From assembly GCA_043819795.1 (NCBI GenBank), contig JBDREN010000049.1, forward strand, positions 2,379 to 66,378: 64,000 bases of DNA, read 5' to 3'. This document shows, one piece after another, positions 18,831 through 52,599 of this stretch; the stretch's first letter is position 1; the number at the start of each line of letters is the position of its first letter. The position numbers and the translations under genes were made by a program. This DNA is from Elusimicrobiota bacterium (GTDB taxonomy: Bacteria; Elusimicrobiota; Elusimicrobia; UBA1565). Below the pieces are notes generated by a model, which did not search any database, was not told the origin of the DNA, and saw nothing but the letters and a program-made list of their open reading frames with translations.

Positions 18831-19823
18831 TCACTTCCATCTGGCGCGCCAGCCCCGGGCGTCTATATGGACGAAGGGCGGGTGGCCGGGGTTTCTACGG
18901 TAGCGCGCCAGGCCGCCCGTCAGGCGGCTCAAGACCGGCTTCCCGAACAGCTCGTCGACCAGGCGGTGAAGGACGTCCGCGTCCCTCCAGTCGGACCTGC
19001 CGTCTCCGTTGAGATCGTCCATGTCGCCGTCTTTCGGCGACTGGTCGACGAAGATGTCCGCGCCCCCGCCCCAGAGATGCCTGCTGTGCTTGACCCGGCC
19101 GATCGCGCGGTTGTGGTGGGGGGTGCGGTAGCCGCTCATGATGTGGAAGGTGTCGGCCCGGTGCCCCTTTTTGTTGAGGGCTTCGAGCAGGAGCTCGAGC
19201 TTGAGCAATAGACGCTCCCGCAGCACGAGGTACTTGGGGAAACCGGACTTCTGCTTGCAGAGGAACTGTCCGAGCGAGAAGTGCGGCGAGACGGGGCGCG
19301 CCATGTTCTCGGCGGTCACCTCCACGAAGCCCGCGGGGGGCTTGTAGATGGGAAGGCCCCGGAAAGGCTTGGCCGGATACTCCCCGATGCGGTATCCGTT
19401 CAGGACTCCTTTGCTGACGCGTGAGTAAGGGACCATCACGAAGGCGTTCAGGAGGATGTCGTCCCCGGACTTCACGCGCGACACGCGGAGCGCGAAGGAG
19501 CCGTGCGTCGATGGGGCCTTCCAGACCCACTTCCGCGGCTCTTTGCGGACCACGTCCCCGGCCTCCGCCCACAGCGTGAACTCCTGCGCGTCCTCCCCGT
19601 CCAGCGCCTCGACGTCCAGACTCTCTCCCGGCAGCACGAATACCGCGAAGACCCGGTATGGGACCGGCTCGCCTTTGACCCTGACCACGAACCCGGCCCG
19701 GCCCGGATCGAAGGGGGGATCGGAGCCGGCCGAGATCGGCGCAGGACGAGACAGGGATGCGAGGACGCATACGACAGGCAGAAGCGGAAGCAGCCGCGAG
19801 CTTCGGCCGAGGCGGATGCTCAT
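18831..19823 (-). CDS. Peptidase M15-like / DUF882 (YcbK/MepK-like murein endopeptidase family)
   Basis: Signal peptide. SGYRTPHHNRAIGRVKHSRHLWGGGADI matches the YcbK/DUF882 zinc-peptidase core. Confidence 0.7.
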   Translation of the reverse strand: MSIRLGRSSRLLPLLPVVCVLASLSRPAPISAGSDPPFDPGRAGFVVRVKGEPVPYRVFAVFVLPGESLDVEALDGEDAQEFTLWAEAGDVVRKEPRKWVWKAPSTHGSFALRVSRVKSGDDILLNAFVMVPYSRVSKGVLNGYRIGEYPAKPFRGLPIYKPPAGFVEVTAENMARPVSPHFSLGQFLCKQKSGFPKYLVLRERLLLKLELLLEALNKKGHRADTFHIMSGYRTPHHNRAIGRVKHSRHLWGGGADIFVDQSPKDGDMDDLNGDGRSDWRDADVLHRLVDELFGKPVLSRLTGGLARYRRNPGHPPFVHIDARGWRARWK

Positions 19824-21487
19824 GGCTCAGGCGGCGTCGAGAGTAGAGCCAGCGCGACGGCTTCGTCCCGTTCGTAGACGTCGCGCCGGAAGTGGACCGC
19901 GCCATCGCCTTCGGCCCACGCGGTCCAGTAGAGGAGATGGACCGGTATGGGCCGTGGAAGCCGCACCGTCCGCTCCTCGCCGGCCTCGATGGCGGCAAGG
20001 ATGCTCTCGCGGCTCCACGCGGGATCGTCCTCGAGCGCCCGCACGGCGAGCTCCAGGGGTCTCTCCACGCGGATGCAGCCCGAGCTGAACGTGCGCGTCC
20101 CTTCGGCGAACAGGCGTCTATCCGGCGTGTCGTGCAGGTAGACGCTGAACTCGTTCGGGAGCATGAATTTGATGCGGCCGAGGGCGTTGAGCGGGCCGGG
20201 CTCCTGCACGAGGCGGTACGGGAAGTCCTCCTCATTGAGGGAGGCCCAGCCGACGGAGTCCGGGTCCACCTCCACCGTCTCGCCCCCGCGGCTTTCATAG
20301 ACCCGCATCCGTTGGCGCTTCAGATAGCGAGGATCCCTTTGGATCTCCGGGAGCTTGTCCGCCACCGCGATGCTGCGCGGGACGTTCCATGAGGGGTTGA
20401 GCACCAGGTACGTCATCCTGTCGCTGAACATGGGAGTGCGCCGGTAGGCGCGGCCGATGATGACGCTCATCCTCAGCGCCTCACGGCCGTCTTCCTGCAT
20501 GCGCAGGCTGAAATCCGGGACATTGACCAGGATGTGCCGGTCCCCGAAGTCCTGCGGCATCCATCGCCACCGCTCCATGTTCACGACGATCTGCTGCGCC
20601 CGGCGCGCCGGGGATACGTTGATCTCCGCGATCGTCCGGGCGCCCGCCACCCCGTCCGCGTCGAGCCCGTGGCGCGCTTGGAAGCGGCGGACCGCCCGTT
20701 CCAGCTCTTCGTCATACAGTTCCGGCGCGGCCGTGCCGGTCCGCTCGATGTCGCCCAAGACCGCCAGCCTGCGGCGCAGCAGAGCGACCGCCGCCCGGCG
20801 GGCGCCGGGGCGCAGGACGGGCGCGGAGGGGATGGCCGTCCACTTGGTCCGCGAGCCCAGACTCCGGTAATGCGCCAGAGCCTCGCGCAGCTTCCAGTAT
20901 CCCGGATCCCTCGGCAGAAGGCCTCTAAGGGCGGCGGAGACCTCCCCCGACGCGAGCGCGTCCTCGAGCACCCTCTCGACGTCGCCTTCCCGCCCGTGGA
21001 CATGCCACTCGGCGTCCAGGGACTGCGGGTTCAGCCGGCCGGACAGGAGGTGCGACGCGTAGACCAGAAAGGCGTCCGTCATGAGGATGTCCGCTTCGGC
21101 CGCCATGTCCCGTGCCCGAGGGGATGCCGGGAGATTTTCGGGCGGCAAAGCCTCGATGGCGCTCAGGTGGTAGTCCTCGGGACGCAGCCCTTCCCGATCC
21201 GCATCGCGCAGGGCCGCGAGCAGCCGGCGTCCGCCCGCATTGAGGCCTCCCTCGGCGACCCACGCCGGCAGGAAGCCTCGCCGCTCATAGAAGGCGGGCA
21301 GGGCAAGCCTGGCGTGCACGCGCTCGTGCCGGGAGGATATCCTCGCGGGCAGGCCCGCGGTCTCGATACGGCGCCTTATCCCCTCGGCGACGCGCTGCTC
21401 CCGATCCGCCTGGGCGGCGGCCGGGACGCGGATCGCGCAGAGCGCGCCGAGGCACAGGCCGGCGAGGATGGCGCGGCGGCGCCCCAT
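19820..21487 (-). CDS. L,D-transpeptidase, YcbB/LdtD-like (PG-binding domain plus YkuD catalytic domain)
   Basis: RFQARHGLDADGVAG (PG_binding_1), YkuD-type catalytic region ...HDTPDRRLF..GTRTFSSGCIRVERP. Start set at ATG 21487 (MGRRRAILAGLCLGALCA); the track ORF extends to 21556. Confidence 0.75.
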   Translation of the reverse strand: MGRRRAILAGLCLGALCAIRVPAAAQADREQRVAEGIRRRIETAGLPARISSRHERVHARLALPAFYERRGFLPAWVAEGGLNAGGRRLLAALRDADREGLRPEDYHLSAIEALPPENLPASPRARDMAAEADILMTDAFLVYASHLLSGRLNPQSLDAEWHVHGREGDVERVLEDALASGEVSAALRGLLPRDPGYWKLREALAHYRSLGSRTKWTAIPSAPVLRPGARRAAVALLRRRLAVLGDIERTGTAAPELYDEELERAVRRFQARHGLDADGVAGARTIAEINVSPARRAQQIVVNMERWRWMPQDFGDRHILVNVPDFSLRMQEDGREALRMSVIIGRAYRRTPMFSDRMTYLVLNPSWNVPRSIAVADKLPEIQRDPRYLKRQRMRVYESRGGETVEVDPDSVGWASLNEEDFPYRLVQEPGPLNALGRIKFMLPNEFSVYLHDTPDRRLFAEGTRTFSSGCIRVERPLELAVRALEDDPAWSRESILAAIEAGEERTVRLPRPIPVHLLYWTAWAEGDGAVHFRRDVYERDEAVALALLSTPPEP

Positions 21488-21593
21488 CTTCGAGGAGATC
21501 CCGGGGCAGGGAAGACGCCGCCGCCCGTCGGCGGGGTCACTGCGCGCGGCGGGCATGGCTCCTTTTGGGCCTCCGGATCACGCCGCCGGCGGC

Positions 21594-21977
21594 TCAGGAG
21601 GCGGATCGGGGCTTGAGCAAAAACTCGATCCGTGTCGTCAGATCGGCCGGGGAGAACGGCTTGGTGATCCAGGAGTCGCACCCGGCTGAGAGCCCTTTGA
21701 TGTATTCCTCGTCGTCGTGGAGCGCGGTCAAAAACAGGATGGGGATGTCCCGGCTCGACGCCCTGGCCCGGAGCTGCCGGCAGACGGATATGCCGTCCGG
21801 CCCCGGCATCATGACGTCGAGGATGATGAGGTCGGGCTCGAAATCCGAGACCGCCTCGTCGATGTCGTCCGCCATGTCGAGCGTGCTGACATCGTAGCGT
21901 CTTCCCAGGCATTCCTGGAGCATCGCGCGGACGCCGGGGTCGTCGTCCACGGCAAGTATTCTCTGTTTTGTCGCCAC
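21594..21977 (-). CDS. Single-domain response regulator (CheY-like receiver)
   Basis: ILAVDDDPGVR...DLIILDVMMPG..DG...ITKPF receiver signature. Confidence 0.8.
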   Translation of the reverse strand: MATKQRILAVDDDPGVRAMLQECLGRRYDVSTLDMADDIDEAVSDFEPDLIILDVMMPGPDGISVCRQLRARASSRDIPILFLTALHDDEEYIKGLSAGCDSWITKPFSPADLTTRIEFLLKPRSAS

Positions 21978-22144
21978 CGGGTGAGGACCTCCTCTCTGGA
22001 TATGTATACTACGGGGAGCTCAGAAGAAAGTTCCCGAAGGCGGGGCCCGAAAGCGACCAGGAGAGGGGCCCGTCGGGAAAGCGATGCCGGGAGGGGCCCA
22101 TGCCGGATAGGCGCTCCGCCCGTCTTGGAGAGGGAGATTAAGAC

Positions 22145-22687
22145 ATGGAAGCCGTAAACGCTTTGTTCGCCGGGCCGTGGGGACCCCTCATCATCTTCGC
22201 GCTCCGCATCTGCGACGTGTCGATCGCGACCATCCGGATGCTATTGATGATGCGGAGCGCGAAAATGATCGTGCCGATCCTCGCGTTCTTCGAGATCCTC
22301 ATCTGGATATTCGCGATAGGCAGCGCCATCAAGAACCTCAACAGCCCCTGGCATATCCTGGGCTACGCCGGAGGCTTCGCCACAGGGACCGTCGTGGGGA
22401 TGTGGATCGAGGAGAAGCTCGCCTACGGCTATGCCACGGCCCGCTTCATCTCGAAGAAATCCGGAGCCGAGCTGGGCGCGATCCTCAGGGAGAGGGGGTT
22501 CGGCGTCACCGAGCTCTCGGGCCGGGGCCGCGAGGGCGAGGTGGCCGTCTTCGTCAGCGTTGTCCGGCGCAAAGAGCTTGAGGACCTCGTAGCGGCGGCT
22601 CAGCAGGCGGACCCGGACATCTTCGTGACGGTCGAGGAAACGCGGTCGATCGCCCGGGGATGGCTGTTTCCCAGGAGACGGAAGTAA
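22145..22687 (+). CDS. UPF0316 / DUF2179 family membrane protein
   Basis: Closely resembles B. subtilis YebE-type UPF0316 proteins (N-terminal 3-TM region plus C-terminal soluble domain). Confidence 0.65.
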   Translation: MEAVNALFAGPWGPLIIFALRICDVSIATIRMLLMMRSAKMIVPILAFFEILIWIFAIGSAIKNLNSPWHILGYAGGFATGTVVGMWIEEKLAYGYATARFISKKSGAELGAILRERGFGVTELSGRGREGEVAVFVSVVRRKELEDLVAAAQQADPDIFVTVEETRSIARGWLFPRRRK

Positions 22688-22893
22688 CGCGTGAAGGCGG
22701 TGAGGAAAGGGCGAATGCCTCTCAGGCTCGGGAACTATCTTGCCGGCGCTCCGTAATGTAAGGGACGACATATGAGGGCCGTTGCCGTGGCGAGAACAGC
22801 GGGGATACTGTCCGCGGGGGAGCGCTCCGATATGGGTGCGGCTCTCCCGCTGAGCCTCGCCGGGCGCTACGGGCGCGGCTGGTCCGGGACAAG

Positions 22894-24000
22894 ATGACGG
22901 ACCCCGGCCAGCCGGCGCAGGGCGACCCCGCCGCCTTCAACCCCCTCGACGGGGCCGAGGGGGATCCTTCCGTCTTCTGGGAGGAGGTCGCCGGACTCCG
23001 GAGAGTGGCCGCGGATCGCGCCGAGCCGCTGGAGCGCCGCCTCGAAGCCTTCGAGGACATTATGGAGTCCGAGGTCGGGGACACGTCGTTCTTGCGCGCC
23101 CGCAAGCTGGAGAGCGAGTTCTCCCTGCGCCAGATCTACCTCAAGTTCGAGGGGGGCAACCCCACCGGCACGCAGAAGGACCGCATCGCTTTCTCCCAGG
23201 TGCTCGACGCCATGCGCCGGGGCTTCGACGCCATCACCCTCGCCACCTGCGGGAACTACGGCGTCGCGGCCGCCCTCGCCGCCTCCATGTGCCGGCTGCG
23301 CTGCATCGTGTACGTCCCGGAGACCTACCGCCCGAGCCGGCTGGGCGAGATCCAGGATCTCGGCGCGGAGGTCGTGCGCGCCGGCGGGGACTACGAGGCG
23401 GCGGTGGCCCTTTCCAGCGAGCGCGCCGCCAAGGAGGAGCTCTACGACGCCAATCCAGGAGGCCAGAACACCCTGCTCCAGCTGCGGGCCTACGGGGAGA
23501 TCTCCTATGAGATCTACGACGAGCTGCGCGACGCTCCCGCCGCCGTGGCCGTGCCCGTGTCCAACGGCACCACCCTCGCCGGGATCTACAAGGGCTTCCT
23601 GAGCCTTTACCGCCGGGGCAAGACCTCCCGGATGCCCAGGCTCGTGGCCGGCTCGGCTTTCAACAAGAATCCCATCGTCCTGGCCTTCCGGAGGGGCAGG
23701 CCCGTCTGCGAGGACCTTCCTCCCCATGTGGTCCGGGAGTCCCGGGTCAACGAGCCGCTGATCAACTGGCATTCCAGCGACGGCGACCACGCGCTGGAAG
23801 CCCTCAGGAAGAGCCATGGCTGGGCGCACAACGCCACGGACCGGATGATGACCGACTTCTGCCGCCTGCTCCGCGAGAAGGAGGGCTACCACGTGCTGCC
23901 CGCCTCCACCGCGGGCCTCATCGCCCTGCTGGAGAGGAACAAAAGCGAGCGGCTCCCGAGCGACCGCTACGTGGCCGTCCTGACGGGTAAGAAGGCATGA
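22894..24000 (+). CDS. PLP-dependent enzyme of the tryptophan-synthase-beta / threonine-synthase-like fold
   Basis: IYLKFEGGNPTGTQKDR (PLP-lysine motif, compare NPTGSFKDR), a glycine-rich loop and ~368 aa. Confidence 0.7.
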   Translation: MTDPGQPAQGDPAAFNPLDGAEGDPSVFWEEVAGLRRVAADRAEPLERRLEAFEDIMESEVGDTSFLRARKLESEFSLRQIYLKFEGGNPTGTQKDRIAFSQVLDAMRRGFDAITLATCGNYGVAAALAASMCRLRCIVYVPETYRPSRLGEIQDLGAEVVRAGGDYEAAVALSSERAAKEELYDANPGGQNTLLQLRAYGEISYEIYDELRDAPAAVAVPVSNGTTLAGIYKGFLSLYRRGKTSRMPRLVAGSAFNKNPIVLAFRRGRPVCEDLPPHVVRESRVNEPLINWHSSDGDHALEALRKSHGWAHNATDRMMTDFCRLLREKEGYHVLPASTAGLIALLERNKSERLPSDRYVAVLTGKKA

Positions 24001-25091
24001 CCGGGTTTCCCGAGGGCCGCGCGGTCGTCTACTGCCAGGGAGCCTTCGCCACCCCCAACGGGAAGACGGCGCACGGGCTGGTCCGCTTCACGCGGCGCTA
24101 CGAGGTCCTCTCCGTCGTGGACGGTTCCTGCGCGGGGCGGGACGCCGGCGTGGTGCTGGACGGCAGGCATCGGGGCATCCCCGTCCTGGCGACCCTGGAG
24201 GAGGCCCTGAAGCACGGCAAAGACGCCGGCCGGCCGGCCACCCACCTGGTGGTCGGGCTCGCGCCCGACGGAGGCCGCCTGCCCCCTTCCGCCAAAGATG
24301 ACATGGCGGCGGCCATCCGGGCCGGGCTGCACGTGGACAGCGGGCTGCACGACTTCCTGAGCGAGGACCCGCTGCTGAGCCGGCTGGCCGCGGAGCGGGG
24401 GGTGCGGATCCGCGACGTGCGCAAGCCCCCGTCGCGCAACGAGCTGAGCTCCTTCAGCGGCCGCATCCGCCAAGTCCGCGCCCCGCGGCTCGCGGTGCTC
24501 GGCACGGACTCGGCGCTCGGCAAACGCACGACAGCCGTGCTCCTGACGGAGGCCCTCCGGGGGCTCGGCTGCAACGCGGAGTTCATCGGGACGGGGCAGA
24601 CGTCGTGGCTGCAGGGGGCGCGCCACTGCATCGTGCTGGATTCCATCATCAACGATTTCGTCGCGGGGGAGATCGAGCGCGTCGTCTGCCTCGCGGACGA
24701 GCGCGAGAACCCCGACGTGATCGTCATCGAGGGCCAGGGCAGCCTGCTCAACCCCGCCTATCCGGGGGGCTTCGAGATACTGGCCGCCGCGCGTCCGGAG
24801 CTGATCGTCCTGCAGCACGCCCCGGCCAGGACGCACTACGACGGCTTCCCGGACTGTCCGATGGACCCGCTCGACCGGCAGATCCAGGCGGTCGAGCTCA
24901 TCGGCAGGAGGCCGCCGGCGGCGATCACGCTCAACCACGAGGGATTGGACGAAGGCCGGATCCCGGCCGTCTGCGAGGATATCTCCCGGAGGACCGGCCT
25001 CCCCGTGTTCGACGTCCTGCTCCAGGGCGCGCAGCCGCTCGCCCGGAGGATCCTCTCCGAAGCCAAGTCGCTATGCCGGCCGTCCGCATGA
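23997..25091 (+). CDS. DUF1611 family protein (Rossmann-like N-domain plus P-loop-containing C-domain), function unknown
   Basis: Overall DUF1611 architecture with GTDSALGKRTT P-loop-like motif. Overlaps the upstream stop by 4 nt. Confidence 0.55.
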   Translation: MTGFPEGRAVVYCQGAFATPNGKTAHGLVRFTRRYEVLSVVDGSCAGRDAGVVLDGRHRGIPVLATLEEALKHGKDAGRPATHLVVGLAPDGGRLPPSAKDDMAAAIRAGLHVDSGLHDFLSEDPLLSRLAAERGVRIRDVRKPPSRNELSSFSGRIRQVRAPRLAVLGTDSALGKRTTAVLLTEALRGLGCNAEFIGTGQTSWLQGARHCIVLDSIINDFVAGEIERVVCLADERENPDVIVIEGQGSLLNPAYPGGFEILAAARPELIVLQHAPARTHYDGFPDCPMDPLDRQIQAVELIGRRPPAAITLNHEGLDEGRIPAVCEDISRRTGLPVFDVLLQGAQPLARRILSEAKSLCRPSA

Positions 25092-25110
25092 CGGGGCAGG
25101 AGGTTTTAAG

Positions 25111-27492
25111 ATGACTTCTAGGGACGCGGCCGGCGACGCCCCTAAGCCGCGCCGCAGGGCCGGCGCCGAGCCTTCGAGCCATCTCGCCGCCCTGCTCTGT
25201 CTCGACGAGCTCCGGGTGGGCCCCCCCAGGCTCGAGCCCCGGAGACTGACGGTGCCCTATGCCGCGACCCGCGACGGCCGCGCCGAGAGCCTGGAGCTCG
25301 TCTACAAGTACGACGAGGACGTCTTCGACCCCGAGGACGAAGGCCACCGCAACCTGGCTTCCATGATCGGCGCCCAGGTGGCGCTGAACTACGGCCTGTT
25401 CTGCCGGGGCATCCGCTTCGACGGGACCTACTCGGAGGCGGACCGCCGGTTCATCGTGGAGATGGCCGAGAACACGGCGCGGGAGATCCTGGTAAAGAAG
25501 CTGCTCCAGCCGAACCCGTTCCTCGTGCCGGACTTCGCCCCGCTGCGGCCGGGGAAGCTCGATACGTACTCCCAGGCCCGAATCCGGTTCTCCTCCCCCG
25601 TGACGGGGGACCGTCAGGTGCCCTGGCAATCCTGGGAGACGAGCCACGAGCGGCTCGCGGTGCTCTCCAGCGGCGGCAAGGACAGCCTCCTGAGCTTCGG
25701 CCTGCTCCAGGAGCTCGGCCGGGAGACGCATCCCATCTTCATCAACGAGTCCGGCCGGCACTGGTTCACCGCGTTCAACGCCTTCAAGCGGTTCAAGGAG
25801 GATGTGCCCCTCACGGCCAAGGTCTGGACCAACGCGGACCAGATGTTCTCCTGGATGCTGCGGCGGCTGCCGTTCATCCGCCGGGACTTCTCCGAGGTGC
25901 GCTCCGACGACTACCCGATCCGTCTGTGGACGGTGGCCGTATTCCTGTTCGGCGCCCTTCCGCTCTTGCGCCGGCGCGGCATCGGCCGCCTCGTCATCGG
26001 CGACGAGTACGACACGACGCGCCGCAGGCGGCATCTCGGCATCCGGCACTACGACGGCCTTTTCGACCAGAGCCGCTACTTCGACAATTATGTGTCGCGC
26101 TACTTCCTGGGCAAGGGCTGGGCCGTGAGCCAGTTCTCCCTGCTGCGCCCCTTGTCCGAGCTTCTGGTCCAGAAGACGCTGGTCGAGCGCTATCCCGATC
26201 TCCAGAGGCTGCAGGTCTCCTGCCACGCCGCCCACATGCGGGAGGGGGCGGCGCGGCCCTGCGGCGGCTGCGAGAAGTGCCGCCGCGTGGTCGGGATGCT
26301 CCTGGCCGCGGACGCGGACCCCTCGCGCTGCGGCTACACCCCGGCGCAGGTCGAAAGCTGTCTCTCCCAGATGGGCAGCAAGGGCGTGCATCAGGAGGAA
26401 GCCTGCTGGCGGCACGTGCTGTTCCTGCTGCGATCCAAGGGGCTCCTCCGCCGGGAAGGGCCCCTGATCGCGCGGGCGGAGGAGAAGCCCGAGGCGCTCA
26501 GCCTGCGCTTCGACGGCGAACGCGCGCCCCTGGACGCCGTCCCCGTGGACCTGCGCCGCCCCCTCTACCGCATCCTCCTGGGCCACGCCGCGGGCGCGAT
26601 GAGGCGGGTGGAGCGGCGCTGGGCGCCCTTCGACCTGCTGGCCGACCGCGGTCTCGCGAAGACCTACCCCTTCGAGTTCGAGACCAAGCGTCAGCCGGGG
26701 GAAGGCGCTCCCCGCAGCTATCTTTACGGCGAGCTGACCTGGCCCGAGATGACGGAGAGGCTGCGGAAGGTCGACCTCGCCCTCCTCCCCGTGGGCGCGA
26801 TCGAGCAGCACGGGCCGCACCTGCCGCTCGACACCGACGCATTCGACGCCGCCTACCTGGCGAGCCGGGTCGCCGAGGCGTGCGGCAAGCCCCAGCCCCT
26901 GGTCCTTCCGGGCATCCCATACGGCGTCTCGTATCACCACGACGAATTCAAGGGCACCGTGAGCATCCGGAACGGCACGCTCTCCGGCCTCGTCTACGAC
27001 GTCGGCATGAGCCTGGCCCGCAACGGCATCCGGAAGCTCGTCATCATCAACGGCCACGGCGGGAACAGCCCGGCGCTCAACTACGCCGCGCAGATGATCA
27101 ACCGCGACGCCCGCATCTTCGTCTGCGTCGATACCGGCGAGACCAGCGACGTGGACATCAACGAGCTGATCGAGACGCCCAACGACGTGCACGCCGGCGA
27201 GATCGAGACCAGCACGGCCCTGGCGGTCCGGCCGGAGCTGGTCCGGATGCGCCTGGCCAAGCGCTCCGTCCCGAGGTTCTCCAGCCGCTATCTCGACTTC
27301 AGCTCGAAGCGCAGCATCTCCTGGCACGCCCACACCAAAAGGATCTCCGAGAGCGGCGTGATGGGCGACCCCACGCGCGCGAGCCGGGAGAAGGGCCGGC
27401 GTATCTGGGAGATCATGGTCGCCCACCTGGTCAACCTGGTGGAGGAGCTGAAATCCTTGAGCCTCGAAGAGATATGCCAGCGCCGCTACTGA
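25111..27492 (+). CDS. Fusion protein: N-terminal domain, PP-loop ATP pyrophosphatase (SGGKDS; QueC/Dph6-like with CxxCxxC zinc motif), and C-terminal creatininase-family amidohydrolase
   Basis: PP-loop LAVLSSGGKDSLLSF at ~residue 187 and CGGCEKCRR at ~372. The C-terminal 250 aa carry creatininase signatures LLPVGAIEQHGPHLPLDTD, IINGHGGN and HAGEIETS. Confidence 0.7.
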   Translation: MTSRDAAGDAPKPRRRAGAEPSSHLAALLCLDELRVGPPRLEPRRLTVPYAATRDGRAESLELVYKYDEDVFDPEDEGHRNLASMIGAQVALNYGLFCRGIRFDGTYSEADRRFIVEMAENTAREILVKKLLQPNPFLVPDFAPLRPGKLDTYSQARIRFSSPVTGDRQVPWQSWETSHERLAVLSSGGKDSLLSFGLLQELGRETHPIFINESGRHWFTAFNAFKRFKEDVPLTAKVWTNADQMFSWMLRRLPFIRRDFSEVRSDDYPIRLWTVAVFLFGALPLLRRRGIGRLVIGDEYDTTRRRRHLGIRHYDGLFDQSRYFDNYVSRYFLGKGWAVSQFSLLRPLSELLVQKTLVERYPDLQRLQVSCHAAHMREGAARPCGGCEKCRRVVGMLLAADADPSRCGYTPAQVESCLSQMGSKGVHQEEACWRHVLFLLRSKGLLRREGPLIARAEEKPEALSLRFDGERAPLDAVPVDLRRPLYRILLGHAAGAMRRVERRWAPFDLLADRGLAKTYPFEFETKRQPGEGAPRSYLYGELTWPEMTERLRKVDLALLPVGAIEQHGPHLPLDTDAFDAAYLASRVAEACGKPQPLVLPGIPYGVSYHHDEFKGTVSIRNGTLSGLVYDVGMSLARNGIRKLVIINGHGGNSPALNYAAQMINRDARIFVCVDTGETSDVDINELIETPNDVHAGEIETSTALAVRPELVRMRLAKRSVPRFSSRYLDFSSKRSISWHAHTKRISESGVMGDPTRASREKGRRIWEIMVAHLVNLVEELKSLSLEEICQRRY

Positions 27493-27508
27493 GCCGGCCG
27501 GGGCCGCG

Positions 27509-28579
27509 ATGAGGATCGCCCGCTGCGAGGCCTGGCTCGTGGAGATGCCCCTGTCCGAGCCCTACGAGATCGCCTATGAGAAGGTCGACAAGGCTCGAAA
27601 CGTGTTCCTGCGCGTCGAGACCACCCGGGGGACCTCGGGCTTCGGCTGCGCGGCGCCGGACCCGAACATCACCGGCGAGACCGTCGAGCAGGCGCTGGCC
27701 GCTCTGCGGGACGCGGCCCCGCCCGTCCTGAAAGGGCTCGATCCCCTGCGCCCGGTCATGGTCATGGAGCGGTTCAAGGTGTCTCTTCAGGCCTTCCCCT
27801 CCGCTCGCGCTGCGATCGACATGGCGCTCCACGACATCTTGGGAAAGGAAGCGGGGCTCCCCCTGTGGAAGCTCCTGGGCGGGTTCCGTTCATCCTTCCG
27901 GACCACCGTCACGCTGGGGATCATGGGCGTCCGCGAGTCCGTCGATAGGTCCCTGGAGATGGCGGCCCGCGGCTTCAAGGCGCTGAAGATCAAGGGGGGG
28001 CTGGACGCGGAGCAGGACGTCGAGCGGCTGGTCCGTATCCGGGAAGCGGTGGGGCCCAGGATCGAGCTGCGATTCGACGCCAACCAGGGCTATACGGCCG
28101 AGCAGACGGCGCGGTTCCTCCGCCGGACGCGCCCGGTCAAGCTGGAGCTCATCGAGCAGCCCACGCCGAGCAAGGACCTCGACCAGCTGGAGCGCGCGAC
28201 CCGGATGGCCTCGATCCCCGTGATGGCCGACGAGAGCCTCATCAACCTCCGGGACGCCTTCCGCCTCGTCCGCAGGGGCATCGCGGACATGGTGAACATC
28301 AAGCTGATGAAGTGCGGCGGCATCACGGAGGCTCTCAACATCAACTCGGTGGCCAAGGCCGGGGGCTACGAGGCGATGGTCGGCTGCATGGACGAGTCGG
28401 CCCTTGCGATCGCGGCCGGCCTGGCTTTCGCCCTGTGCCGGCCGAACGTCGCCTATGCGGACCTGGACGGACACCTGGGCCTGGCGGGCGATCCGTTCGA
28501 GGGGTCGGTCGTGCTGAAGGAAGGAGTGCTCTATCCCACCGGGGCTCCGGGCCTGGGCTGCAAGGCGCCGCGGTCATGA
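27509..28579 (+). CDS. Dipeptide epimerase (L-Ala-D/L-Glu epimerase-like), enolase superfamily MR/MLE subgroup
   Basis: KxK motif (ALKIKGG), metal ligands D/E/D (RFDANQGY, ELIEQP, VMADESL) and second catalytic Lys (NIKLMKCGG). Confidence 0.8.
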   Translation: MRIARCEAWLVEMPLSEPYEIAYEKVDKARNVFLRVETTRGTSGFGCAAPDPNITGETVEQALAALRDAAPPVLKGLDPLRPVMVMERFKVSLQAFPSARAAIDMALHDILGKEAGLPLWKLLGGFRSSFRTTVTLGIMGVRESVDRSLEMAARGFKALKIKGGLDAEQDVERLVRIREAVGPRIELRFDANQGYTAEQTARFLRRTRPVKLELIEQPTPSKDLDQLERATRMASIPVMADESLINLRDAFRLVRRGIADMVNIKLMKCGGITEALNINSVAKAGGYEAMVGCMDESALAIAAGLAFALCRPNVAYADLDGHLGLAGDPFEGSVVLKEGVLYPTGAPGLGCKAPRS

Positions 28580-28616
28580 AGAAACACGACACCTCCTCCT
28601 GCCCGCGCCGCGCGGC

Positions 28617-28814
28617 CTAATCCTTTCGATCCAGATCCTCTTCGGCCACGTCCTTCTCCTGCGCCCCCTCGTCCTCCTCGGCGGCATATTCGTCCGCCGT
28701 CTGCTCCTCCTCCTGCGGCGTGTCGTCGTACGCTTCCTCCGCCGGGCCGCGCGCGCAGCCCCAGGAGGCGGACATCAAGACCCACATCGCGAACAACACT
28801 CCAAGCTTCCTCAT
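28617..28814 (-). CDS. Small acidic lipoprotein (65 aa), hypothetical
   Basis: Strong RBS AGGAGGAGAATCGAGG before ATG 28814. Lipobox-like SASWGC, followed by a highly acidic E/D-rich tail. The track ORF extends further upstream to 29075 through a non-coding-looking leader. Confidence 0.45.
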   Translation of the reverse strand: MRKLGVLFAMWVLMSASWGCARGPAEEAYDDTPQEEEQTADEYAAEEDEGAQEKDVAEEDLDRKD

Positions 28815-28833
28815 CCTCGATTCTCCTCCTCCT

Positions 28834-29208
28834 TCAGAGGGGGGCTCTGGCGCCGTGCTTGCGGCGCGGCGCGGGCCGGCCGCCCTTCTTGTTTCTCGCC
28901 GGCCCGGCATCCGAGACGGTCCCGACGCGGAAATACCTCGACTTAGTCCTGCATGATCGGCCGTCTCCGCCTCCGGCCATCCGGGCCGCCAGCTTGTGCC
29001 TTCCGGGCCGCCCCGCCATCCAGTCGAACCACCAGTAGCCCACGGAAGGCCGGCAGTCCTGCCACGGCCCGTCATCGATAGATACCTCCACCGGCTTCCC
29101 GCCGGGGGAGTCGATGCGGACGGTGTAGTCGCCCGGGGCCACCATCTCGTTGAACCTCGGATAATCCACGCGGATCGTCCCGCGCGCCGCTACCTCTTCC
29201 ATCGGCAT
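28834..29208 (-). CDS. Hypothetical protein (124 aa)
   Basis: AAGGAGG lies 8 nt upstream of the ATG. Balanced composition in the N-terminal 80 aa with a basic C-terminus. No recognisable motif. Confidence 0.4.
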   Translation of the reverse strand: MPMEEVAARGTIRVDYPRFNEMVAPGDYTVRIDSPGGKPVEVSIDDGPWQDCRPSVGYWWFDWMAGRPGRHKLAARMAGGGDGRSCRTKSRYFRVGTVSDAGPARNKKGGRPAPRRKHGARAPL

Positions 29209-29286
29209 CCTCCTCGCCTCCTTATGCGGCCTTGCGCGACGGCTTCCGCCGTCCCTGAAATCACGTCGCGGTCCGGCTCCCCTGAT

Positions 29287-30006
29287 TCACAGCGTCCTCT
29301 CCGGAGGTCCCTCTTTGCCCTCCTCTTGGGGCGGAGGCTCTCGGTCCTGGCCGCCGCGCGGCTGGCGTTTCTTGACGGGGACGGGCGGACGGTCCCGCGG
29401 GCGGTCATCGGGAGCCGGTTGCGCGGAAGACGGCGCCGCGGGCTTTAAGGGGATCCTTTGGTGGTCCGCCCCGTAGCCGAATCGTTCCTCGCCGTCCACG
29501 CTGAAGAGCGCCTTGTCGGCCACGCGCCATGCCCCGTCCGTCCGGGCCAACGTGAAGTCCACCACCGCGCGGACGGGACGGTCGTCCAGCTCCAGGTCGC
29601 TGGGCTCCATGAACTCCGCGCGGAGGATGTACTTGTCCGCGCTTACCCGGCGCATCCCCGCGGGATCGATCCTCTTGAACTCCAGGAAGTACGTCTGATC
29701 GAAGGCGCCATCGTCGACGGGGAATAGTCCGCTGCCCTCGTCGACGGCATTCCGGATATGGGCGAGAAGTTCTTTGCGCAGGCTTCGCCGCAATTCCGAG
29801 TCCTCCGCGTTCGGCATCGGCGCGGGCTCTTTGACCGGGCTCCGTCCGGCGCCGCCGTCCGGCGCGGGCGCCGGACTCCGGGCGTCACCGTCGCGGGCTC
29901 GGGCATCGCCGCCGGGGAGCGCCTGCTGCCCCGCCACGGCGGCCGCGAGCACGGCGATCACGACGAGGCGATTCTTCATTGCGCGCCGCTGTTTCCCGAT
30001 GTGCAT
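29287..30006 (-). CDS. Hypothetical secreted protein (signal peptide; Pro/Arg-rich C-terminal tail)
   Basis: MKNRLVVIAVLAAAVAGQQALP signal-like segment. The start could be ATG 30006 or ATG 29979. No recognisable domain. Confidence 0.4.
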   Translation of the reverse strand: MHIGKQRRAMKNRLVVIAVLAAAVAGQQALPGGDARARDGDARSPAPAPDGGAGRSPVKEPAPMPNAEDSELRRSLRKELLAHIRNAVDEGSGLFPVDDGAFDQTYFLEFKRIDPAGMRRVSADKYILRAEFMEPSDLELDDRPVRAVVDFTLARTDGAWRVADKALFSVDGEERFGYGADHQRIPLKPAAPSSAQPAPDDRPRDRPPVPVKKRQPRGGQDREPPPQEEGKEGPPERTL

Positions 30007-30941: not shown

Positions 30942-32255
30942 ATGCCCACGCGCACGTTGGCCGTTGCCGCCGTCCGGCAGCTGATCGAAGCCGATCCTAG
31001 ACGGGCCGCGTTCTTCCTAGAGGGCCTCGACATCAATGATGCGGGAGCCATGCTGGCCGCCTTGCCGCCGTCCTCCGCGCGCCGCCTCTTCAAGCACCTC
31101 CAGCCCGCCTTCGCGGGCAGGATGCTGAGCGCCTTGCGGCCGGACAGTGTCGCCGCGGTCCTGGAGAGTGTCGAGCCCGAAGCCGCGGTCGATGCCTTCC
31201 GCTCCATGGAGAACGGGGTCCGTCAGACGGTGCTGGGCGCTCTTTCCGAGCAGAGGAAGATCGCGCTTCAGGAGCTGTTGGCCTATCCGGAAGGGAGCGC
31301 GGGCAGGCTCATGAGCACCGACGTCGTGTCCTTCATCCAGGGGACCAAGGTGCGCGAAGTCATCCAGAGGCTGCGCGCGGCCGTCAGGAAGGGCTCGTCG
31401 CCGACGTACGCCTACGTCGTCGATGAGGACCGGAAGCTCAAGGGGGTCCTGGTGATGCGGGACCTGCTCTTCGCGGATTCGGGCGCGCCGATCGAGAGCG
31501 TGATGAGCCCGGGGGTCAAGGCCGTATCCGGCTTCACGGACCGCGAGGATTTGGTCCAGCTGGCCAAGGAGAGACGCTACCTCTCGGTGCCGGTGGTGGA
31601 CGCGGACGGACGGATCCTCGGCTCGGTGCGCATGGCCGAGCTCCTGGAGTCCAGCCAGGAGGAGGCCGGCGAGGACATCCAGCTCATGTTCGGCGGGAGC
31701 GCGGACGAGAGGCCGTTCTCTCCGGTCTCGTTCAAGCTGGCGCGAAGGCTGCCGTGGCTCCATGTGAACCTCGTTACGGCCTTCATGGCCGGGGCGGTGG
31801 TGGCCCTCTTCGAGGGACTGATCAGCCAGCTGGCCGTGCTCGCGGTGTTCCTGCCGATCATCGCGGGGCAGGGGGGCAACGCCGGGACCCAGACGCTGTC
31901 CGTGGTCCTGCGCGGCCTCATCATGCGGGAGATCCGGCCCCGGGACGCTTGGCGCGCGATCGTCAGGGAGTCGGGGGTGGGCGCGATCACCGGCCTGGTC
32001 ACGGGCGTGGTGACCGCAGGCGTGGCGTGGCTGTGGAAGGGGAACCTGTTTCTGGGGCTCGTCGTGGGGCTCGCCATGATCGTGAACCTGGTCGCGGCGG
32101 GGGCCGCGGGCGCGGTCATACCGCTGGCCATGAAGAGGCTCGGCTTCGACCCGGCCCAATCCTCGGGCATCATCCTTACCACGGTGACGGACGTCGTCGG
32201 TTTCTTCGCCTTCCTGGGCTTCGCGTTCCTGTTCCGGAGCCGGCTCATCGGATGA
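30942..32255 (+). CDS. mgtE: Magnesium transporter MgtE
   Basis: MgtE N-domain, tandem CBS-like region (VVDEDRKLKGVLVMRDLL, SVPVVDADGRILGSVRMAELL) and C-terminal 5-TM MgtE pore domain (PIIAGQGGNAGTQT). Confidence 0.85.
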   Translation: MPTRTLAVAAVRQLIEADPRRAAFFLEGLDINDAGAMLAALPPSSARRLFKHLQPAFAGRMLSALRPDSVAAVLESVEPEAAVDAFRSMENGVRQTVLGALSEQRKIALQELLAYPEGSAGRLMSTDVVSFIQGTKVREVIQRLRAAVRKGSSPTYAYVVDEDRKLKGVLVMRDLLFADSGAPIESVMSPGVKAVSGFTDREDLVQLAKERRYLSVPVVDADGRILGSVRMAELLESSQEEAGEDIQLMFGGSADERPFSPVSFKLARRLPWLHVNLVTAFMAGAVVALFEGLISQLAVLAVFLPIIAGQGGNAGTQTLSVVLRGLIMREIRPRDAWRAIVRESGVGAITGLVTGVVTAGVAWLWKGNLFLGLVVGLAMIVNLVAAGAAGAVIPLAMKRLGFDPAQSSGIILTTVTDVVGFFAFLGFAFLFRSRLIG

Positions 32256-48010: not shown

Positions 48011-49369
48011 ATGCAGTTTGAAGGCCAAGGTCGTTTTTTCGAGACCATCCTCCGTTGTGTCGCTGACGGCGTGTTCACGGTGGACCGCGACTGGCGTATC
48101 ACCTCCTTCAATAAGGCGGCCGAGCGCATCACGGGCATGAGCGCCCGGCAGGCCATGGGCAAGAGATGCTCCGAAGTCTTTCACGCGGACCTCTGCGGTG
48201 ACGGCTGCGCCATCAGGCGGGCTCTCGAGACCAAACGCGAGGTCATCGAGCAGCCGGCCAATATCCGCGACCAGCGCGGCAGGGCGATCCCGATAAGCAT
48301 CAGCGCGGCCGTGCTTCGGGGGGAGGACGGGACCGTCCTCGGCGGGGTCGAGACGTTCCGCGACCTGTCGGCCATCGAGCAGCTCAGGCGCGAGATCCGG
48401 AGCCAGTACACCTTCGAGGAGATCGTCGGCAAGAGCGAGGCTTTCCAGAAGGTGTTCTCCATCCTGCCGGACGTCGCCGCCAGCGAGAGCACGGTCCTCA
48501 TCGAAGGCCCGAGCGGCTCCGGCAAACAGCTCCTGGCGCGGACCATACACAACCTGAGCCCCCGCCGGGATCGGCCTTACGTCGTGGCGAACTGCGGGAT
48601 GATGCCGTCCGGCCGCTGCGCGTCCGAGCTTTTCGGCCACGTGCGAGGCGCCTTCAAGGACGCCAAGGGGGACCGGCTCGGCCGCATCGCGCAGGCCGAA
48701 GGGGGGACCATCTTCCTGGACGAGATCGGCGACCTGTCGATGGAGAGCCAGGTCAGGCTCCTCAAGGTCCTTCGGGACGGAGAATACGAGCCGCTGGGCG
48801 GCGTCAGTCCCCGGCGCGCCGATGTGCGCGTGGTCGCTGCCACGAGCAAGAGCCTGCCGGATCTGGTCGGGCGGGGGCTTTTCCGCGACGATCTCTACTT
48901 CCGCCTGGCGGTGGTGCGGCTGAGCATACCGCCCCTGTCCGAGCGGCGCGAGGACATCCCCTGCCTGGTCGAGCACTTCGTCCAGCGCTTCAACGCCAAG
49001 CGCGGCAAGAGCATCCAGGGGGTGACGCCCGCGGCCATGGAGCTTCTCATGCGCCATGGTTTTCCCGGGAACGTGCGCGAGCTGGAGAACCTGATCGAAT
49101 GCGGCTTCGCTCTATGCCACGGCGGATGGATGGACGTCGGCCATCTGCCCGAGGATCTGAGGCCGTCGCGGCGGCCGGGCGCCGCCGGGCGCCGCCTCGA
49201 GGGCGCGTCCCTGCTCCGGCACATCGAGGCGGACGCGGTCCGCGCCTCCTTGGGGCGGAACGCGGGCCATCTCGGCCGCACGGCCGAGGAGCTGGGCATC
49301 AGCCGGACCACGTTGTGGCGCAAGATGAACAAGTACGCCATCGAAGCGGACGAGTTCCGGGCCGGTTGA
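48011..49369 (+). CDS. Sigma-54-dependent transcriptional activator with N-terminal PAS sensor (no receiver domain) and C-terminal Fis-type HTH
   Basis: PAS (VFTVDRDWRITSFNKAAERITG) with a Cys cluster (CSEVFHADLCGDGC). AAA+ sigma-54 interaction domain (LIEGPSGSGKQLLA, GAFKDA, ESQVRLLKVL...FRDDLYFRL). HTH_8 (ELGISRTTLWRKMNKY). Confidence 0.85.
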   Translation: MQFEGQGRFFETILRCVADGVFTVDRDWRITSFNKAAERITGMSARQAMGKRCSEVFHADLCGDGCAIRRALETKREVIEQPANIRDQRGRAIPISISAAVLRGEDGTVLGGVETFRDLSAIEQLRREIRSQYTFEEIVGKSEAFQKVFSILPDVAASESTVLIEGPSGSGKQLLARTIHNLSPRRDRPYVVANCGMMPSGRCASELFGHVRGAFKDAKGDRLGRIAQAEGGTIFLDEIGDLSMESQVRLLKVLRDGEYEPLGGVSPRRADVRVVAATSKSLPDLVGRGLFRDDLYFRLAVVRLSIPPLSERREDIPCLVEHFVQRFNAKRGKSIQGVTPAAMELLMRHGFPGNVRELENLIECGFALCHGGWMDVGHLPEDLRPSRRPGAAGRRLEGASLLRHIEADAVRASLGRNAGHLGRTAEELGISRTTLWRKMNKYAIEADEFRAG

Positions 49370-49388
49370 CCCGGGGGGAGAGAACGCG

Positions 49389-50762
49389 GTGAGCACCCAA
49401 AGGAAATACAGCTACTTCGTCGAGCCCAAGGCGCTCGAGGTCGCGGAGCGTCCGCGAAAATTCCTCATGGCATTCGCGGCCGTGCTGAAGAACGCCAGCT
49501 ACGGGCTGGCGCTCGATACGTACGCGCGCCTGAGCACCAAATGCGGGCGTTGCGTGGCCTCCTGTCAGCTCTATCAGACCACGCGCGAGGAGCGGGACAT
49601 CCCCTGCCATCGCTCCGAGCTCCTGCTGCGGGTGTACCGGCGGTACTTCACGCATTCGGGCCGCCTCAAGGCCAAGATATTCAGCGGTTTCGAGTTGACG
49701 GACGCCTACTTGGACGAGATGGGCGAGGCCTACTACCGCTGCACCGCCTGCCGGCGGTGCAAGGCCACCTGCCCCATGGGCATCGACCACGCCCTGGTCA
49801 CTCATCTGGCCCGGTGGCTGCTCTCGGAGATCGACGTCATCCCCAAGGCGCTGTTGGTGGCGACGCGCGAGCAGCTCGAGGGCGTCGGCAATACCTCGGC
49901 CATCCCGGTCCCCGCGCTCAAGGACACCTGCGAGTTTCTGGAGGAGGAGCTCAAGGAGATCACCGGCGTGGACATCAAGTTCCCCATGGATGTCGAGGGC
50001 GCCGAGTACGTCTTCTTCCCGGCGGTCTCGGACTATCTGCTCGAGGCGGACACCCTCATGGGCAACGCGGCCGTCATGCACGTCACCGGCGGGTCGTGGA
50101 CCATCGGCACGGGCAACTACGACGGCATCAACTACGGCCTGTTCTACAGCGATCGCATGATGGAGCGGATCGTCAACAACGTCGTCAAGGAGGTCCGCCG
50201 CCTCAAGGGGAGGAAGGTCCTCGTCGGCGAATGCGGCCACGCCACTCGCAGCGCCTGGTACGTGCCGGCCTTCGGCGGCCCGGACGCGCCGCCGGTGGTC
50301 AATTGCTTGCAGTACGCCCACCGGATGCTCGAGGCCGGGAAGCTCCCCCTGAAGAAAGAGCTTATCAAGGAGCGGGTCACCTATCACGATCCGTGCAATA
50401 TCGCCAGGAGCGGGCGGATCACCGAGGAGCCTCGGGAGCTCCTTAAGGCTATCTGCGGGGACTTCGTGGAGATGACGCCGAACCGCGCGGAGAACTACTG
50501 CTGCGGCGGAGGCGGCGGCACGGTCTCCATCGACGAGATCCGGGCTTTCCGCACGGGTCTCATGGGAAAGCGCAAGGCGGATCAGATCCGCGCGACCGGC
50601 GCCAAATACGTCGTGTCGCCCTGCGCCAACTGCAAGAAACAGCTCCGCGAGGTCTGCGAGGACAACGGCCTCAACGAGGTCGAGGTCGTGGGCCTGCACG
50701 ACCTGCTGCTGAAGGCGATCGACTTCGGGGTCCCCGAGAAGAAAGGAGAGGACGATGGGTGA
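49389..50762 (+). CDS. DsrK/HdrD/HmcF-like iron-sulfur oxidoreductase (CCG-domain protein)
   Basis: Ferredoxin-type CxxCxxCxxxCP motifs (CGRCVASCQ; CTACRRCKATCP) and C-terminal CCG-domain motifs (PCNIA...YCCGGGGG...SPCANC). Confidence 0.75.
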   Translation: MSTQRKYSYFVEPKALEVAERPRKFLMAFAAVLKNASYGLALDTYARLSTKCGRCVASCQLYQTTREERDIPCHRSELLLRVYRRYFTHSGRLKAKIFSGFELTDAYLDEMGEAYYRCTACRRCKATCPMGIDHALVTHLARWLLSEIDVIPKALLVATREQLEGVGNTSAIPVPALKDTCEFLEEELKEITGVDIKFPMDVEGAEYVFFPAVSDYLLEADTLMGNAAVMHVTGGSWTIGTGNYDGINYGLFYSDRMMERIVNNVVKEVRRLKGRKVLVGECGHATRSAWYVPAFGGPDAPPVVNCLQYAHRMLEAGKLPLKKELIKERVTYHDPCNIARSGRITEEPRELLKAICGDFVEMTPNRAENYCCGGGGGTVSIDEIRAFRTGLMGKRKADQIRATGAKYVVSPCANCKKQLREVCEDNGLNEVEVVGLHDLLLKAIDFGVPEKKGEDDG

Positions 50763-51465
50763 GCTAGAGATCTGGACCGAGTGGGCGCGCGGGCCGCTGT
50801 TCAGGGCCGCGCTGGCGTTCATGATCCTGGGCCTTCTGCGTCACGCGGCGTTGACCATATGGGAGCTGGCGGGGATCATGTACCGCGCCGGCGACAAGGC
50901 CTTCCCGTGGAGGCGGGCATTCTCCGCCACGCTAAAATGGCTTTTCCCGGTGGGGCAGATCAAGAACCGTGTCCTCTACAGCCTGACCACGCTCGGCTTC
51001 CATGCCGCCGTCATCATCGTTCCCGTTTTTCTCGCGGGCCACGTCGCGCTCTGGGAGCGGGGCACGGGCCTGTGCTGGCCGACCATCCCCAACGGCGTGG
51101 CGGACGTGCTGACGATCATGGCCGTGCTCGCGGCGGCCTTGCTCGTGGCGGAGCGCGCGGCCGCGCGGGACTCCCGGGCGCTGAGCCGCTTCCAGGACTA
51201 CGCCTTGCCCCTGCTCGTGGCCGCGCCCTTCGCGACCGGCTTCCTGGTCATGCATCCGGCTTTAAACCCGTTCGGCCATGAAGCGACGATTCTGGTCCAC
51301 GTGTTGAGCGCGGATATTCTGTTCATCCTCATCCCGCTGACCAAGCTGAGCCACATGATCCTGCTCCCGGGCACGCAGATCATCTCCGAGCTGTCCTGGC
51401 ATTTCCCGCCGGACGCCGGCAGGAAAGTGGGCGTCGATCTCGGGAAGGAGAAGCAACCCATATGA
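50755..51465 (+). CDS. DsrM/HmcE/NarI-like di-heme b membrane subunit
   Basis: Five TM helices with conserved His pairs placed as in the nitrate-reductase gamma family. Translationally coupled to flanking genes. Confidence 0.65.
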   Translation: MGELEIWTEWARGPLFRAALAFMILGLLRHAALTIWELAGIMYRAGDKAFPWRRAFSATLKWLFPVGQIKNRVLYSLTTLGFHAAVIIVPVFLAGHVALWERGTGLCWPTIPNGVADVLTIMAVLAAALLVAERAAARDSRALSRFQDYALPLLVAAPFATGFLVMHPALNPFGHEATILVHVLSADILFILIPLTKLSHMILLPGTQIISELSWHFPPDAGRKVGVDLGKEKQPI

Positions 51466-52595: not shown

Positions 52596-52599
52596 GGCG

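Follow-up and report, generated by a model that had tools for sequence, protein, structure and literature searches.

A conserved operon of anaerobes joins a PLP enzyme to a QueC-like PP-loop/creatininase fusion protein

Introduction

What is made, or broken down, by an operon in which a pyridoxal 5'-phosphate (PLP) enzyme, a DUF1611 protein, a fusion of a PP-loop module with a creatininase-family domain and a relative of the dipeptide epimerases are encoded one after the other? The question is raised by contig JBDREN010000049.1 of an Elusimicrobiota bacterium (assembly GCA_043819795.1), of which positions 2,379 to 66,378 were analysed; this stretch of 64,000 nucleotides is called the window, and coordinates refer to it. 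An earlier note on the same DNA had described the four genes as a self-contained module for a modified (D-)amino acid or dipeptide-like compound that matched no known pathway. Literature searches returned no publication on the operon. Here we tentatively propose, with a probability of about 0.4, that it encodes an ATP-using pathway for making an N-acyl amino acid or a dipeptide, or for inverting its stereochemistry, and we describe the gene pair around which it is built.

Results

Organisation of the operon

The four genes follow each other closely on the forward strand (Table 1). The PLP enzyme gene and the DUF1611 gene share a 4-nt ATGA start/stop overlap, 19 nt with a GGAGG ribosome-binding site separate the DUF1611 gene from the fusion gene, and a gap of 16 nt precedes the MR_MLE gene; the coordinates given before, and the statement that the genes are coupled or at most 20 nt apart, are thus exact. 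The four open reading frames (ORFs) have a GC content at third codon positions of 0.91–0.93, in a window of 67% GC, which is the signature of real genes. The long ORFs opposite the operon are compositional artefacts. Profile searches confirmed the PALP, DUF1611, creatininase and MR_MLE domains proposed in the earlier note, while the amino-terminal half of the fusion protein gave no significant Pfam match. Judged from the sequences, the operon would encode five enzyme activities, with the catalytic motifs of every domain intact.

Table 1. Features of the operon and of its surroundings in the window
Feature	Position	Strand	Residues, basis or remark
UPF0316-type small membrane protein gene (DUF5698 + DUF2179)	22145-22687	+	Pfam; NCBIfam PRK04164
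PLP enzyme gene (threonine-synthase-like)	22894-24000	+	PALP, E 8.6e-54
DUF1611 gene	23997-25091	+	DUF1611_N + DUF1611 (Pfam)
Fusion gene, PP-loop module + creatininase (793 aa)	25111-27492	+	domain scans, architecture of homologues
PP-loop module, QueC/MurL-like, predicted adenylating, whole			residues 1-540 of the fusion protein
N-terminal alpha/beta subdomain	25171-25641	+	residues 21-177; highly conserved
QueC-like PP-loop core	25633-26310	+	residues ~175-400
PP-loop SSGGKDS	25666-25686	+	
Four-Cys motif	26221-26280	+	C371-C390
Helical region of the PP-loop module			residues ~400-535
Creatininase-family domain	26731-27492	+	residues 541-793; PF02633 at 541-777
MR_MLE gene, dipeptide-epimerase group of the enolase superfamily	27509-28579	+	Pfam, PDB matches
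Lipoprotein-like ORF (65 aa)	28617-28814	-	convergent with the operon 3' end; good ribosome-binding site
MgtE gene	30942-32255	+	

Distribution and conserved core

In a scan of one genome per species, the fusion protein was found in at least 587 species genomes of many phyla. Carriers include Desulfobacterales, Ignavibacteria, Latescibacterota, Zixibacteria, Calditrichota, Gemmatimonadota, Holophagae, Planctomycetota, Bacteroidales, Krumholzibacteria and Elusimicrobiota, among them the cultured Desulfosarcina variabilis (NZ_CP159846.1); the hosts are anaerobes, mostly of sulfidic sediment. Nearly all of the 120 best homologues, about 770–810 residues long, share the fusion architecture, and a profile search with the PP-loop module gathered 570 clusters at 50% identity.

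Gene order was classified in 81 non-redundant loci, while neighbouring genes were counted in 82. The order PALP-DUF1611-fusion-MR_MLE is present in 62 of the 81, always with the fusion gene between those for DUF1611 and MR_MLE; nine loci are incomplete through contig ends only, seven, all from Desulfobacterales, contain just PALP and the fusion gene, and three are irregular. The four-gene combination, described before from a single genome, is thus a recurrent one. Median identities to the proteins of the window are 64% for PALP, 60% for DUF1611, 55% for the PP-loop module, 72% for the creatininase domain and 59% for MR_MLE.

The variants reveal which parts can be exchanged. The PP-loop and creatininase parts are encoded by separate genes in one locus (L003); in another variant (P0124) it is DUF1611 that is joined to the PP-loop module, the creatininase being separate, and in a third (P0123) a methyltransferase fused to the PP-loop module takes the place of the creatininase. 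Distant standalone PP-loop forms occur in PALP-DUF1611-PP-loop(-GNAT) operons, in which the three proteins diverge together (identities of 59, 60 and 46% for PALP, DUF1611 and PP-loop in L087, and of 46, 46 and 36% in L088). A further composition, in a Thorarchaeota contig (L085; JBHLSA010000039.1, 1837-5981), contains a MurL-like PP-loop protein, a Ddl-like ATP-grasp ligase, a GNAT and a PALP enzyme of model PRK06381 that is 42% identical to the PLP enzyme of the window; this Asgard archaeon is not expected to make peptidoglycan. Judged by these variants, the PLP enzyme and the PP-loop enzyme are the invariant core. DUF1611 is a frequent companion, while the creatininase, together with MR_MLE, GNAT and methyltransferase, belongs to a set of interchangeable accessories. 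The observation made before is confirmed, and the interpretation attached to it is supported in part.

The PP-loop module and its relation to QueC and MurL

The PP-loop module has the fold of QueC and Cap9, at a sequence identity to these of only 14–18%. Apart from the fold, the SGGxDS motif and the four-Cys zinc site of QueC are present; the four cysteines fit the structural zinc site of QueC, not a three-Cys iron-sulphur site. For the alpha/beta subdomain that precedes the core, no informative structural neighbour was found. The earlier assignment of a QueC-type PP-loop domain fused to a creatininase agrees with the fold, the PP-loop motif and the creatininase domain score given below. In searches of Pfam, NCBIfam and the PDB with the single sequence and with a profile, the amino-terminal half of the fusion protein gave nothing significant except weak matches to MurL and a match of its PP-loop motif to MJ0690 (E 0.2); the QueC models of Pfam and NCBIfam were not matched.

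An identity as TilS or another tRNA-modifying PP-loop ATPase, the reassignment that the earlier note had named as fatal to its proposal, was rejected: the TilS model gave no significant match, the fusion protein contains no tRNA-binding domain and TilS is not its closest fold. The related idea of a QueC or TilS paralogue that modifies nucleosides, tRNA or deazapurines and stands beside amino-acid genes by chance would account for the QueC-like fold and for the label "7-cyano-7-deazaguanine synthase-like" that some homologues carry in the JGI annotation. We regard it as very improbable, given that neither model is significant, that the operon neighbourhoods examined contain no queD, queE, folE or tgt, and that the PP-loop protein diverges in step with amino-acid enzymes across phyla and is sometimes fused to them.

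The sole curated family matched by the PP-loop superfamily is MurL (NCBIfam NF041275), which was matched by 29 of 32 members with a best E-value of 2.7e-7. The fusion protein of the window reaches 24.7 bits against a cut-off of 700. A standalone protein (P0253) bridges the two, matching the module profile with an E-value of 5.9e-37 and MurL with one of 7.2e-10 over 225 residues; for further distant members MurL was again the only match. A search seeded with P0253 returned six relatives, none of them named MurL. Taken together, the profile matches indicate a homology between module and MurL that is remote only. Another MurL-like standalone protein (P0271) is encoded on a JGI contig (3300069122; L084, 2599-3999) among many short, co-directional, unannotated ORFs, which give the contig a phage-like look.

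MurL epimerises the carboxy-terminal residue of a peptide in an ATP- and Mg-dependent, AMP-forming reaction; the enzyme is described as having no known domain, and adenylation of the alpha-carboxylate has been proposed as its mechanism (PMC5808125, PMC8788868). Because every characterised relative (QueC, Cap9 and MurL) adenylates a carboxylate, the PP-loop module would be expected to do so as well. By this analogy, carboxylate adenylation is the mechanistic step that we hold with most confidence.

The creatininase domain

The carboxy-terminal domain of the fusion protein reaches the gathering score of PF02633 with 245 bits; the residues for metal binding and catalysis do not vary. Its best match in NCBIfam is MftE, at 150.9 bits below the cut-off of 172; the model of true creatininases gives 112.3 bits against a cut-off of 235. 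The database label "creatininase" is probably misleading. Members of the family open five-membered cyclic amides or cleave amides beside a lactam. Near the operon there is no radical-SAM gene or precursor gene of the kind that forms the mftABC context.

The match to MftE is what would favour a role in maturing a ribosomal peptide, with the MftE-like domain clipping a modified carboxy-terminal unit and the Cap9/MurL-like module adenylating the peptide terminus; Cap9 modifies a protein amino-terminus and MurL a peptide carboxy-terminus (PMC5808125). This too has very little probability in our view: the MftE cut-off is missed, no radical-SAM enzyme or ribosomal-peptide recognition element (RRE) partner recurs, and no short ORF is conserved in the 82 loci.

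The MR_MLE enzyme

The protein encoded by the last gene consists of MR_MLE_N and MR_MLE_C domains and aligns end to end with the dipeptide epimerases 3rit (E 2.6e-69), 3jva and 1jpm (YkfB), at E-values between 1e-62 and 1e-69. The KxK motif, the Asp/Glu/Asp metal ligands, the second catalytic lysine and the DxD motif, which binds the substrate ammonium group, are all kept, and the motifs LKIKGG, DANQG, EQP, ADES, NIKLMK and DLDGH are conserved in 58 orthologues. Arg24 of YkfB, which binds the glutamate side chain, is replaced by a family-conserved glutamate. The models of L-Ala-D/L-Glu epimerases are missed (212 bits against 500 and 121 against 343), as is that of DgcA (170.1 against 400). The name dipeptide epimerase, used before, is therefore supported by the catalytic residues and the DxD motif and fails at the NCBIfam equivalog cut-offs.

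The DUF1611 protein

A Rossmann-like amino-terminal domain and a P-loop carboxy-terminal domain make up this protein, which has 2obn, 2g0t and 7xrj as relatives in the PDB. A Walker-like motif, LGTDSAxGKRTTA, is conserved in 59 orthologues. On sequence grounds it is a putative N-acyltransferase of the DgcN kind. DUF1611 had been taken as a family without assigned function; it has a characterised relative in DgcN, a D-glutamate N-acetyltransferase, and the protein of the window stays far below the DgcN cut-off (162.6 bits against 480).

The PLP enzyme

The first gene encodes a fold-type II PLP enzyme. It reaches 408.7 bits with NCBIfam PRK06381 ("threonine synthase"; cut-off 266), the model to which the PALP partners in L085 and L088 also belong, and 87.8 bits with the canonical thrC model TIGR00260, below the cut-off of 167.1. 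The nearest solved structures are threonine synthases, with E-values of 4e-26 or weaker. The PLP lysine, K95, is retained within the motif NPTGTQKDR. Of two residues of Thermus threonine synthase that we take to be ligands of the substrate phosphate, T88 corresponds to Y122 and R160 to Q196, in a pairwise alignment to which we give low weight. The database label "threonine synthase" is probably misleading. This enzyme fails the canonical ThrC test, and the other parts fail those for QueC, MurL, DgcN, DgcA, MftE, creatininase and L-Ala-D/L-Glu epimerase; in agreement with the earlier note, the operon has no assigned pathway.

Neighbouring genes and regulation

The UPF0316-type gene lies 207 nt upstream of the operon, in the same direction. 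A gene for a DUF2179 membrane protein is present in 24 of the 82 loci (L008-L072, and the window). About 20 of these have it immediately next to the operon and co-directional with it, and the distance is usually 0–370 nt; it is of UPF0316 type in the window and of YitT type in Desulfobacterales. The protein is a probable accessory or transport partner, and the gene may be the fifth of the system, possibly a transporter gene. Of the 82 loci, 18, including L014, L019, L039, L069 and L082, have genes for Mg2+ transporters (CorA, MgtE, CNNM) no more than 7 kb away from the operon, and such genes make up 20 of 1153 ORFs; in our judgement this is far above chance expectation, in a count without formal correction for kinship. 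Genes for MscS, GroEL/Hsp20, Usp and K+ and Na+/H+ transporters also recur. In Latescibacterota CP070677.1 (L001 and L014; 2982-6885 in L001), groES-groEL-hsp20 is located directly upstream and in the same direction, and only 37 nt separate the hsp20 stop codon from the start of the PALP gene; six loci have GroEL in the vicinity. This adjacency hints at stress-linked expression.

Genes for lysine-2,3-aminomutase-like radical-SAM proteins, assigned by eye, lie a few kb from the operon in four loci (L035, L036, L060 and L072). Three of these (L035, L036 and L072) also contain genes for a Ddl-like ATP-grasp protein and, again assigned by eye, a GNAT-deacetylase fusion. Together these genes recall clusters for beta-lysine-type solutes or modifications.

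NtrC-type regulators are encoded in 18 loci. Sigma54-like promoters are found in 10 of 67 upstream regions and in 2 of 84 controls, mostly in Desulfobacterales; upstream of the operon in the window there is only a weak site, matching at 7 of 11 positions. No Rfam match was obtained in window positions 21900-29400 at E-values up to 1, nor in 12 related loci at gathering thresholds. No conserved short ORF accompanies the operon in the 82 loci, where the only clusters were antisense translations of neighbouring genes, and no peptide or amino-acid uptake system recurs near it among the loci surveyed.

The 65-residue ORF that converges on the operon has a signal- or lipobox-like amino-terminus and a very acidic tail (MRKLGVLFAMWVLMSASWGC...); no counterpart was found in related loci. 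Upstream, the reverse strand (18831-21556) carries a peptidoglycan-remodelling pair of genes, one for a Peptidase_M15 protein and one for a YkuD-type LD-transpeptidase (Scaffold + PG_binding_1). A peptidoglycan link through these two was rejected, as they are on the opposite strand and are not conserved beside the operon elsewhere. Further downstream (48011-54561, forward strand), a sigma54 activator gene precedes genes that look like those of a respiratory membrane complex: they encode CCG/Fe-S proteins and an NrfD-like membrane subunit with a fused multihaem cytochrome c3 domain.

Discussion

Proposed pathway

Beyond the domain assignments, the intact motifs, the gene coupling and the identity of the core, the following steps are what we infer. 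The PLP enzyme would supply an amino-acid building block by beta- or gamma-replacement, which the DgcN-like DUF1611 protein might then acylate at its nitrogen. The PP-loop module would adenylate the carboxylate and release AMP and pyrophosphate, leading either to an amide or, as proposed for MurL, to a labile alpha-proton, possibly by way of a five-membered cyclic intermediate. The creatininase domain could open this ring, cleave the amide or remove the acyl group. The MR_MLE enzyme would bring the dipeptide or N-acyl amino acid to equilibrium at its stereocentre, and the DUF2179 membrane protein may handle a substrate or product. The theme of stereochemistry is suggested because MurL, DgcN-DgcA and the dipeptide epimerases all handle that of N-acylated or peptide-bound amino acids. 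The balance tilts towards biosynthesis over catabolism because of the exchangeable GNAT and methyltransferase, the lack of uptake genes and the neighbours of stress and ion homeostasis; the product is possibly a stress metabolite or protectant.

Several observations weigh against this pathway. The similarity to MurL is remote, at 15–38 bits against a cut-off of 700, and a MurL-like module and an MR_MLE epimerase look redundant if stereo-inversion is all that takes place. DUF1611 and MR_MLE are absent from the seven two-gene Desulfobacterales loci, and therefore the core reaction cannot depend on acylation or epimerisation. The link to ion transporters is purely statistical and ignores the shared ancestry of the loci, while the sigma54-type promoters and NtrC-type regulators of some Desulfobacterales suit a catabolic operon equally well. 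A more specific proposal, rather unlikely in our estimate, is that the fusion protein is itself an ATP-driven epimerase or converter that adenylates, cyclises and hydrolyses: once the alpha-carboxylate of a dipeptide or N-acyl amino acid had been adenylated, a five-membered ring of oxazolone or imidazolone type would form, racemise and be opened stereoselectively by the creatininase domain. If true, this route with its PLP enzyme would be a new and widespread one to a D- or otherwise modified amino-acid metabolite, perhaps a stress solute, in a dozen anaerobic phyla, and would assign MurL, so far an orphan enzyme, to the superfamily of QueC-like PP-loop proteins.

The promoters and regulators just mentioned bring up catabolic salvage of D-amino acids or peptidoglycan dipeptides by an extended route of the DgcN-DgcA type. 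DUF1611 would acylate a D-amino acid, MR_MLE racemise the N-acyl form, the creatininase remove the acyl group and the PLP enzyme act on the L-product by deamination or another conversion, with the PP-loop module as the ATP-driven irreversible step. DUF1611 and MR_MLE are indeed the two DgcN-DgcA families, the latter is nearest to the dipeptide epimerases of murein-peptide catabolism, the hosts live in sediment and the window has the LD-transpeptidase and M15 peptidase genes upstream, quite apart from the regulatory features of the Desulfobacterales. We nevertheless consider salvage unlikely, though not negligible. Both equivalog cut-offs are missed by a wide margin, the glutamate-binding arginine of YkfB is a conserved glutamate, uptake systems do not recur and the peptidoglycan genes are on the other strand and not among the conserved neighbours. 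Moreover, the invariant core does without DUF1611 and MR_MLE, the GNAT and methyltransferase of variant operons are typical tailoring enzymes, and the PLP enzyme is threonine-synthase-like, not dehydratase-like.

Where the core itself is to be explained, synthesis of a sulphur amino acid by way of a thiocarboxylate, analogous to the CysO/CysM/Mec and MetM/MetO systems, may be considered. Here the PP-loop enzyme would adenylate the carboxylate of a carrier, from which a thiocarboxylate would arise, the PLP enzyme would add this to O-phospho-(homo)serine, and after an S-to-N acyl shift the amidohydrolase would free cysteine or homocysteine. The scheme would account for precisely the three invariant enzymes, namely the PLP enzyme, the PP-loop enzyme as the adenylating one and the amidohydrolase, in hosts that are mostly anaerobes of sulfidic sediment. 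It leaves DUF1611, MR_MLE, GNAT and methyltransferase unexplained, however, no gene for a ThiS- or CysO-like carrier recurs and no conserved small ORF accompanies the operon; the four-Cys site is of the structural zinc type, and other residues stand in place of the putative phosphate ligands of threonine synthase. Neat as an account of the core, the scheme is improbable in our view.

If the proposed pathway of N-acyl amino-acid or dipeptide synthesis or inversion were solved, a further amino-acid or dipeptide metabolite would become known from sediment anaerobes, and DUF1611 would gain a second function. The QueC-like PP-loop fold would give a structural and mechanistic frame for MurL, a proposed antibiotic target. 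The cultured Desulfosarcina variabilis makes the question directly testable.

Comparison with known systems

The DgcN-DgcA pathway of D-glutamate catabolism (EC 2.3.1.312 and EC 5.1.1.25) proceeds by N-acylation followed by racemisation (PMC10845958, PMC11747546), and its enzymes belong to DUF1611 and MR_MLE (PMC10845958, PMC12363236). As in our operon, the genes of the two families share one transcription unit, and the same logic of acylating and then racemising may apply. In our operon, however, they are split by the fusion gene and dispensable in some lineages, they miss both equivalog scores, and the MR_MLE enzyme keeps the DxD motif of the dipeptide epimerases. With YkfB, 3rit and 3jva this enzyme shares all catalytic residues and that motif; it differs in falling below every NCBIfam equivalog cut-off, in the replacement of Arg24 and in lacking a context of murein-peptide catabolic genes.

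The alternative D-glutamate route of Xanthomonas, MurD2-MurL, combines a ligase with an ATP-dependent, AMP-forming, unidirectional epimerase of the carboxy-terminal residue of a peptide. The likeness lies in the acylating or ligating enzyme encoded beside it and in the implied adenylation of a carboxylate. There is, however, no MurD2 gene and no UDP-N-acetylmuramic acid context at the operon, and no Mur ligase gene in the 82 neighbourhoods; the module exceeds MurL in length by about 90 residues, continues into a creatininase domain and is always paired with the PLP enzyme. QueC and Cap9 are PP-loop enzymes that convert a carboxylate to an amide, and the module differs from them in its extra amino- and carboxy-terminal subdomains and in the absence of a deazapurine context or that of a cyclic-oligonucleotide-based antiphage signalling system (CBASS).

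The pathway to the osmolyte N-acetylglutaminylglutamine amide (NAGGN) consists of Ngg, a fusion of GNAT and ATP-grasp domains, the PP-loop amidotransferase AsnO and a peptidase. It resembles our operon in logic only, with its N-acyltransferase, peptide- or amide-forming enzyme, PP-loop enzyme and hydrolase, and with the stress and ion neighbours found here; in the Thorarchaeota variant, a GNAT is encoded together with an ATP-grasp ligase and a PP-loop protein. Differently from that pathway, the PP-loop enzyme of the operon is like QueC and not like asparagine synthetase, and DUF1611 stands where Ngg would be. The enzymes belong to known superfamilies, and their combination appears to be new, resembling both the logic of acylating, epimerising and deacylating and that of a ligase with an ATP-dependent epimerase.

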